The notes under the pieces: generated by a model
What the model saw: the letters and a program-made list of their open reading frames with translations, nothing else
The model's database searches: none
What the model was told of the DNA's origin: nothing
Source of the DNA: Escherichia coli
Lineage (GTDB): Bacteria; Pseudomonadota; Gammaproteobacteria; Enterobacterales; Enterobacteriaceae
Strand: one strand, 5' to 3'
DNA length: 64,000 nt
NCBI RefSeq assembly: GCF_003334385.1
Contig: NZ_QOWN01000013.1
Program-made: the position numbers and the translations under genes
Part shown: piece after piece, positions 59,353-59,828 of the stretch
Position numbering within the stretch: the first letter of the stretch is position 1
Layout of the letters: every line of letters begins with the position of its first letter

Positions 59353-59828
59353 CGCTCACCAAAGACATCATGATGAAATGATGATATCCCGCATAAGAAA
59401 GAGGCATTTTTTACACGCAGTGCGCTGAAGTGTAGTTGGATAAAAAATCACTCTTTTCTGATAATACTGTCGTACGCTTATCTTTCGACAATGAGGCCGT
59501 CGGCAAAATAAAATGACTAATGTAATCGTTGCTGATGAATATCTTCTGCTCACATAAAAATCACACAATAATATTGATAAATCAGATTATCTTACCTTTA
59601 CAACATTGCGTTAACAGTCAATGACACTTCTTGAATAAAAATATTGTCAATCAATGAGTTATTCCTCATTTAAGATTATTCTCATTCACGTAAAAAACAT
59701 AATTCCTATCATCACAGCCACGCTCATTTTGAATTATCTGAATAATAGCGAGCGTTCTTTAGTTAAGCAGATCTTAATTGAAGACGAAATTATTGTGTGT
59801 GCAACTTACTTAATACCGGACATCTAAG

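Follow-up and report, generated by a model that had tools for sequence, protein, structure and literature searches.

Within the window, by which we mean the whole stretch of 64,000 nt that was analysed, the part from 59200 to 59900 is 100% identical to Escherichia coli K-12 MG1655. The K-12 annotation was mapped onto it from the PGAP record and from RefSeq NC_000913.3. Sequence, position and neighbours (minE - ycgI' - ymgJ - ymgI - ymgG - ymgD - ycgH') are those of the K-12 ymgI/ymgJ locus; there is no difference, and the window represents the K-12 locus itself. The following genes and sequence elements are relevant here:

58910-59253, minus strand: ycgI, a pseudogene, the 3' stub of an autotransporter gene (K-12 annotation)
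59288-59407, minus strand: ORF of 39 codons, "hypothetical protein" in PGAP, overlapping the 3' end of ymgJ
59368-59553, minus strand: ymgJ (b4594), 61 aa, GTG start (K-12 annotation)
59442-59447: A6/T6 homopolymer inside ymgJ, whose length polymorphism lies behind frameshifts
59654-59827, plus strand: ymgI (b4593), 57 aa, ATG start (K-12 annotation)
59829-60173, plus strand: ymgG, TTG start (K-12 annotation)
60177-60512, plus strand: ymgD (PGAP and K-12 annotation)

The stop codon of ymgI ends 1 nt ahead of the ymgG start. For ymgD the start varies by annotation: PGAP gives 111 aa from 60177 and RefSeq K-12 gives 109 aa (NP_415689.2), which would begin at 60183. Terminator-like hairpins with T-runs are located at 58814-58831 (plus strand, about 275 nt 3' of minE) and at 60525-60549 (plus strand, just past ymgD), positions that suit transcription units minCDE and ymgGD ending there. 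On the far side of ymgGD lies a second autotransporter gene, ycgH (60569 onward, minus strand), which is a frameshifted pseudogene in the window and intact in strains GF66.1 and 43905. It is missing from E. albertii, E. ruysiae and relatives, and there ymgF is found directly 3' of ymgD.

A first-pass annotation of this DNA had described the interval as an AT-rich spacer that may hold small genes, and had named ymgI and ymgJ as annotated in K-12 between ymgG and ycgI. The GC content is indeed only 0.28-0.35 over 59400-59800, compared to about 0.5 in the flanks. This was correct as well: both genes are annotated in K-12, both fall into the interval with 100% identity, and when the interval was compared with these annotations an ORF was matched to each of them. 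The 66-codon minus-strand ORF at 59368-59568, which the first-pass annotation could match to neither gene, exists and is ymgJ plus five upstream codons, the open frame extending beyond the annotated GTG at 59553 to a TTG at 59568. It is also not the only ORF, as had been stated, because the 57-codon plus-strand ORF at 59654-59827, missing from the ORF list used there, is ymgI and the 39-codon ORF at 59288-59407 on the minus strand is annotated too. That small genes lie in the spacer is therefore right with regard to annotation, but neither of the two ORFs shows coding constraint.

ORFs as long as ymgJ and ymgI are not beyond what is expected by chance in such an AT-rich sequence. When 59254-59828 was shuffled 2000 times with its dinucleotides preserved, 26% of the shuffles had a longest ORF of at least 66 codons and 10% had two ORFs of at least 57 codons. 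The literature on ymgI, ymgJ, b4593 and b4594 yielded transcriptome mentions only, with no translation or protein data found, and the supplements of PIRT-Seq, the Weaver preprint and the Stringer preprint contain nothing on ymgI or ymgJ. An FlhDC gSELEX peak listed beside ymgJ was set aside as irrelevant; its sequence appears to be minE coding sequence, and its coordinates fit an older genome version. Precomputed Pfam labels on homologs name PF28591 as YmgI and PF28592 as YmgJ. A Pfam-A profile search, with a copy that probably is an older release, returned no match for YmgI or YmgJ even at E <= 10, and these two as well as the 39-aa ORF were without a match in NCBIfam, too.

YmgI and/or YmgJ might be genuine young small proteins specific to E. 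coli, a reading which we regard as improbable. Both are annotated in K-12 and named by PGAP, Pfam families exist for them, ymgI is intact in every sampled E. coli strain and both ORFs are intact in most. For ymgJ, homologs were found in E. coli only. Among the ten E. coli strains compared, a small and related sample, ymgJ is frameshifted in three (L006, L007 and L021, one of them ST131). In the alignment the homopolymer at 59442-59447 is one base shorter in exactly these three and is T7 in a paralogous copy upstream of ypjA, where the ymgJ frame is broken by a stop at about codon 12 and by a 1-nt indel. In the seven strains that keep the frame, 15 nonsynonymous variable sites per 140 and 5 synonymous ones per 43 give a pN/pS of about 0.9, a neutral-looking pattern which speaks against a protein under selection. 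Furthermore, reading of the sequence upstream of the GTG at 59553, the TTG at 59568 and the ymgI start revealed no Shine-Dalgarno-like purine run.

The 39-codon ORF was considered as a conserved upstream peptide, as it is intact in both paralogs, but was rejected because every one of the 5 differences between them changes the amino acid. PGAP calls length variants of this ORF (in L007 and L025) "ATPase" in one part of the genomes and "hypothetical protein" in another. On a peptide of about 32-40 aa the name "ATPase" looks spurious and propagated by similarity.

The origin of the DNA that carries ymgJ can be traced by paralogy. Two features are needed here:

59253-59254: deletion junction, at which 3083 bp are missing compared to E. 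coli 43905 (L019)
59254-59607, minus strand: orphaned upstream (leader/promoter) region of an autotransporter gene, recognized by its paralogy to the ypjA upstream region and by the same segment lying 5' of intact autotransporters

When 59354-59653 was used as a query, the median number of places found in an E. coli genome was two, the second one being directly upstream of ypjA. Within K-12, ycgI (58900-59253) is 95.5% identical to about 345 nt at the 3' end of ypjA (b2647), and it is 95.3% identical to the 3' end of an intact gene in E. coli 43905; it corresponds to the last 344 nt, the beta-barrel C-terminus, of an autotransporter of the YpjA/EhaD type. Adjoining it, 59253-59607 on the minus strand matches the DNA upstream of ypjA from -30 to -385 (L004 5257-5612) with 89% identity. 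From this homology to both the 3' end and the upstream region of ypjA it follows that the ycgI locus is a YpjA/EhaD-type autotransporter gene with an internal deletion. In ypjA the coding sequence is intact, whereas the window has lost the autotransporter coding sequence, start codon included.

Assignment to this family is further substantiated by intact alleles in other strains, in addition to the homology to both ends of a family member. In E. coli 43905 (L019) an intact gene for a 1132-aa autotransporter is located at 3073-6471. In the alignment to this locus, window 58850-59253 corresponds to 3013-3417 and window 59253-59700 to 6501-6948; compared to the intact gene, the 3083-bp deletion takes the autotransporter ATG and 29 nt of the leader. 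KK19-02 (L024) likewise has an intact autotransporter gene at the locus, and in both strains the 39-codon ORF and ymgJ are directly upstream of it on the same strand. E. albertii possesses an intact autotransporter of 1475 aa here, with no ymgJ ORF called upstream. The deleted form is widespread, as at least 5006 of 5426 complete genomes cover 80% or more of the query 59200-59900, junction included. Both ycgI and ymgJ are absent from strain T309.Ta3, and the ycgI/ymgJ module is also absent from E. ruysiae, E. whittamii and three related lineages. In E. coli 2452 (L025) the ymgJ region is interrupted by an IS1A element at 594-1291, with ymgI, ymgG and ymgD still in place.

Just upstream of ymgJ, at 59614-59586 on the minus strand, there is a promoter-like sequence (TTAACG, 17 nt, GATAAT; 9/12 matches). 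It could be the former promoter of the autotransporter gene, in which case ymgJ would lie in a leader of about 330 nt of the intact gene. A segment of about 100 nt, 59505-59607, has homologs upstream of ymgG in Escherichia species without the autotransporter (L011, L013-L016), and a counterpart also upstream of the autotransporter of the ycgI locus and of ypjA (L004 5510-5612). The homology in these three contexts suggests that the copy at ypjA arose by duplication from the ycgI locus, taking along a piece of the ancestral minE-ymgG intergenic region.

The second annotated gene, ymgI, was found in 5111 of 5426 E. coli genomes and is intact in all 10 sampled strains as well as in T309.Ta3. The 57-codon frame with its ATG is nevertheless confined to E. 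coli. In five non-coli Escherichia lineages it is truncated or lacks the ATG. The frame has 42-53 codons in E. albertii, 54 codons without ATG in E. ruysiae and Escherichia sp. E1V33, only 18-19 codons in two lineages, and in one lineage a stop four codons before the end. Thus, sister species keep the ymgI nucleotides but not the ymgI frame. Only the stop codon, TAA, is kept in 13 of 13 sequences compared. Within E. coli the differences in ymgI fall mostly on codon position 2, with pN about equal to or above pS, and between species they are spread evenly over the codon positions and show no codon periodicity.

The neighbouring genes served as controls. In ymgG and ymgD the differences between species are overwhelmingly at third codon positions (for instance 3/2/36 and 4/0/19), and within E. 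coli all differences from K-12 are at the third position, with dN = 0. YmgG is represented by one accession in all 10 sampled strains, YmgI by several variants. Synonymous or third-position bias, the mark of purifying selection, was consequently found in the ymgG/ymgD controls and is absent from ymgJ and ymgI, neither of which keeps its frame through strains, species and paralogs.

What the sequence under ymgI and its surroundings may do instead is indicated by the following elements, all on the plus strand:

59671-59684, plus strand: candidate RcsB box TAAGATTATTCTCA, an exact consensus match that abuts the -35 hexamer
59685-59712, plus strand: promoter-like site of the sigma-70 type, with -35 TTCACG (59685-59690), a 16-nt spacer and -10 TATCAT (59707-59712), 9/12 matches in a consensus scan
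59719-59828, plus strand: 5' leader of ymgG, 110 nt, with the 5' end from a published reporter fusion

The 5' end stems from the OmrA/B preprint, in which a fusion 'ymgG -110+90' was built that is said to comprise the 5'UTR and the first part of the coding sequence. Its forward primer contains the genomic sequence CACGCTCATTTTGAATTATCTG, whose first base is window position 59719; this end is taken from a reporter design and not from a 5'-end dataset. The supplements of Cappable-seq contain no entry near the ymgI/ymgG coordinates. The consensus scan found the TTCACG/TATCAT pair independently of this published 5' end, and the -10 hexamer ends 7 nt before it. Both hexamers are largely conserved across Escherichia species.

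The ymgI ATG at 59654 is located 65 nt upstream of the published ymgG 5' end and, hence, a ymgGD mRNA that begins at 59719 cannot encode full-length YmgI; the last 36 codons of ymgI are the ymgG leader. That the published 5' end falls within ymgI is a further point against a genuine YmgI protein. Transcription of ymgI was reported for all seven samples of one RNA-seq study, and strong down-regulation for one microarray study. Such signals would be expected from reads or a probe covering the ymgG leader. Further upstream, at 59485-59514, lies another promoter-like site with 10/12 matches, which is partly conserved in species without the autotransporter. It could give rise to a longer transcript that runs over the ymgI ATG. 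If so, YmgI might be a small hydrophobic, membrane-associated peptide made from this longer transcript and co-translated with YmgG; the ymgI stop lies right in front of the ymgG start, as is typical of translationally coupled genes, and the region is transcribed. In view of the substitution pattern, the lost frames in sister species and in the ypjA-upstream paralog, the missing Shine-Dalgarno-like runs and ORF lengths that arise by chance, we give this possibility little credence. On the same grounds, we infer from the comparison of sequences that YmgI and YmgJ are not functional proteins, although they may be expressed as proteins. The data suggest rather that ymgI and ymgJ are unconstrained ORFs on regulatory DNA.

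Control of ymgGD by the Rcs system is documented. Both genes are listed among those modulated by RcsB (PMC2731931), and colicin M as well as a LolCDE inhibitor induce them along with the Rcs regulon (PMC3599342, PMC5105897). The consensus of the RcsB box is TN(G/A)GAN4TC(T/C)NA (PMC7913699). One would expect two exact matches to this pattern by chance in the 64-kb window, and two are found: the candidate box at 59671-59684 and TCAGACTCTTCTTA at 11313-11326 (plus strand). With regard to conservation, exactly one match occurs in 21 of the 22 fetched loci with an E. coli-like ymgG (the exception being L014), and wherever the ymgG start could be mapped it is 157-158 nt upstream of it.

The arrangement resembles that of RcsB-activated promoters with a box at -35, as an exact box abuts the -35 hexamer and genes of the Rcs regulon follow downstream. 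Of these two features, the box near -35 was read from the sequence, and RcsB dependence of the downstream genes is known from the literature alone. A difference from other such promoters is that the candidate box here sits inside an annotated coding sequence, at ymgI codons 6-11. Judged by its match and position, the candidate box would be bound by RcsB. A genome scan with YmgD returned five loci only, and the sole relatives found outside Escherichia were those of Edwardsiella hoshinae. There, L018 2564-3288 carries a ymgG-like gene (125 aa) next to a ymgD-like one (111 aa, 68% identity); the RcsB-box pattern had no match in this locus.

The leader downstream of the promoter is conserved. Compared to six other Escherichia lineages, 59719-59828 is 89-96% identical, which is at or above the level of the ymgG coding sequence (88-94% identity to K-12), whereas the promoter part 59654-59718 reaches 63-80% identity to K-12. 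The variable columns of the leader are distributed 9/9/8 over the three ymgI codon positions, without codon periodicity. A search against Rfam with window 58700-60700 on both strands returned no match at E <= 1.

These observations also bear on the idea that the interval is a functionless neutral spacer, AT-rich debris left from the decay of the autotransporter. For the ymgJ part this has some appeal, as it is variable, contains indels, tolerates an IS1 insertion and is wholly missing in some strains. It does not fit the 110 nt upstream of ymgG with their identity at or above coding level across Escherichia, nor the positional conservation of the RcsB-box match and the promoter hexamers, nor the fact that ymgGD is a strongly regulated operon. 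As an explanation of the whole interval we consider it hardly credible.

RNA folding predicts three helices in the leader region. The first one pairs 59720-59725 with 59750-59755; two of its pairs are changed on both sides and it is 100% paired in 8 sequences. The second is an 11-bp hairpin of 59756-59766 with 59774-59784, in which variation clusters in the loop (59767-59773). In the third, CAACTTA (59802-59808) pairs with TAAGTTG (59825-59831), spanning the ymgI stop and the ymgG TTG start. This stem is hardly variable and, therefore, covariation is no test of it. Support for the predicted structures is weak, as 21 of 500 shuffles reached the observed covariation, and the MFE of the single sequence (z-score -0.28) was not better than that of shuffled sequences. 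If the models apply, the leader would fold as predicted. Within it a tentative candidate for the pairing site of OmrA/B is TTAATACC at 59810-59817.

According to the OmrA/B preprint, both of these small RNAs repress the fusion ymgG -110+90, and it is their conserved 5' end by which they do so. The ymgG leader in this respect resembles the 5' leaders of envelope-protein mRNAs targeted by OmrA/B, being likewise repressed by both. Considering the conservation at coding level, the lack of coding periodicity and the lack of an Rfam match, the ymgG leader may be an undescribed cis-regulatory RNA restricted to Escherichia, whose hairpins would gate the TTG start and integrate inputs from OmrA/B or from envelope stress. 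This is a tentative suggestion, and it is equally doubtful, though conceivable, that an RNA element of the leader has been masked by the ymgI annotation.

A related thought is that ymgI, or a shorter in-frame ORF within the leader (for instance from the TTG at 59729), acts as an upstream ORF: its translation would open the hairpin at the ymgG start and the peptide itself would be irrelevant. Such an arrangement would make sense of the single nucleotide that separates the ymgI stop from the ymgG TTG, of the predicted hairpin 59802-59808/59825-59831 over the start, and of the TAA stop kept in 13 of 13 sequences in front of what is a weak start codon. In three species, though, the leader and ymgG are intact while the frame has shrunk to 4-19 codons and no ATG is left (GTG and TTG aside). 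The hairpin at the ymgG start has no covariation support, and the folding energy does not exceed that of shuffled sequence. We judge this to be very unlikely, even more so than young small proteins. Both ideas keep some weight because of the promoter-like site upstream, the 1-nt spacing and the reports of transcription.

The explanation that we prefer, and hold with good though not full confidence, is that two pieces make up the interval, a divergent regulatory region, and that the two annotated small ORFs overlie them. The first piece, 59254 to about 59607 on the minus strand, is what remains of the DNA 5' of a YpjA/EhaD-type autotransporter gene. A deletion of 3.1 kb, present in K-12 and most E. 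coli, took away the start codon and almost the entire coding sequence and left the ycgI stub joined to the orphaned upstream region; ymgJ and the 39-codon ORF are then open frames in former leader or promoter DNA of the autotransporter. The second piece, about 59650-59828 on the plus strand, would be the RcsB-activated promoter of ymgG-ymgD, with candidate box, -35, -10 and the 5' end at 59719. It would be followed by the conserved and possibly structured leader of 110 nt, which contains the TTG start of ymgG along with a weak ribosome-binding region, and this leader would be the part targeted by the small RNAs OmrA/B. K-12 identity, paralogy, deletion, the absence of a coding signature and the fact that the box keeps its position come from this analysis; Rcs induction of ymgGD, repression by OmrA/B and the 5' end were taken from the literature.

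The presence of ymgI and ymgJ in the spacer is already known, as they are annotated K-12 genes. What is probably new, to a mild degree, is that the annotation of ymgI masks a candidate RcsB promoter and conserved leader sequence, while ymgJ is a relic of an EhaD-type autotransporter gene that has decayed. The two continue to be listed as uncharacterized proteins, and a 2025 study counted ymgI and ymgJ among five K-12 genes for hypothetical proteins to which neither a regulator nor a GO-based function was given. By the comparison made here they probably do not code for proteins. If so, the sequence of ymgI should be understood as RcsB promoter plus conserved leader of ymgGD, and that of ymgJ as relic upstream DNA of the autotransporter gene. 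Should this be true, there would be two fewer entries among the unknown proteins of E. coli, and work on the regulation of ymgGD would be aimed at the right sequence.
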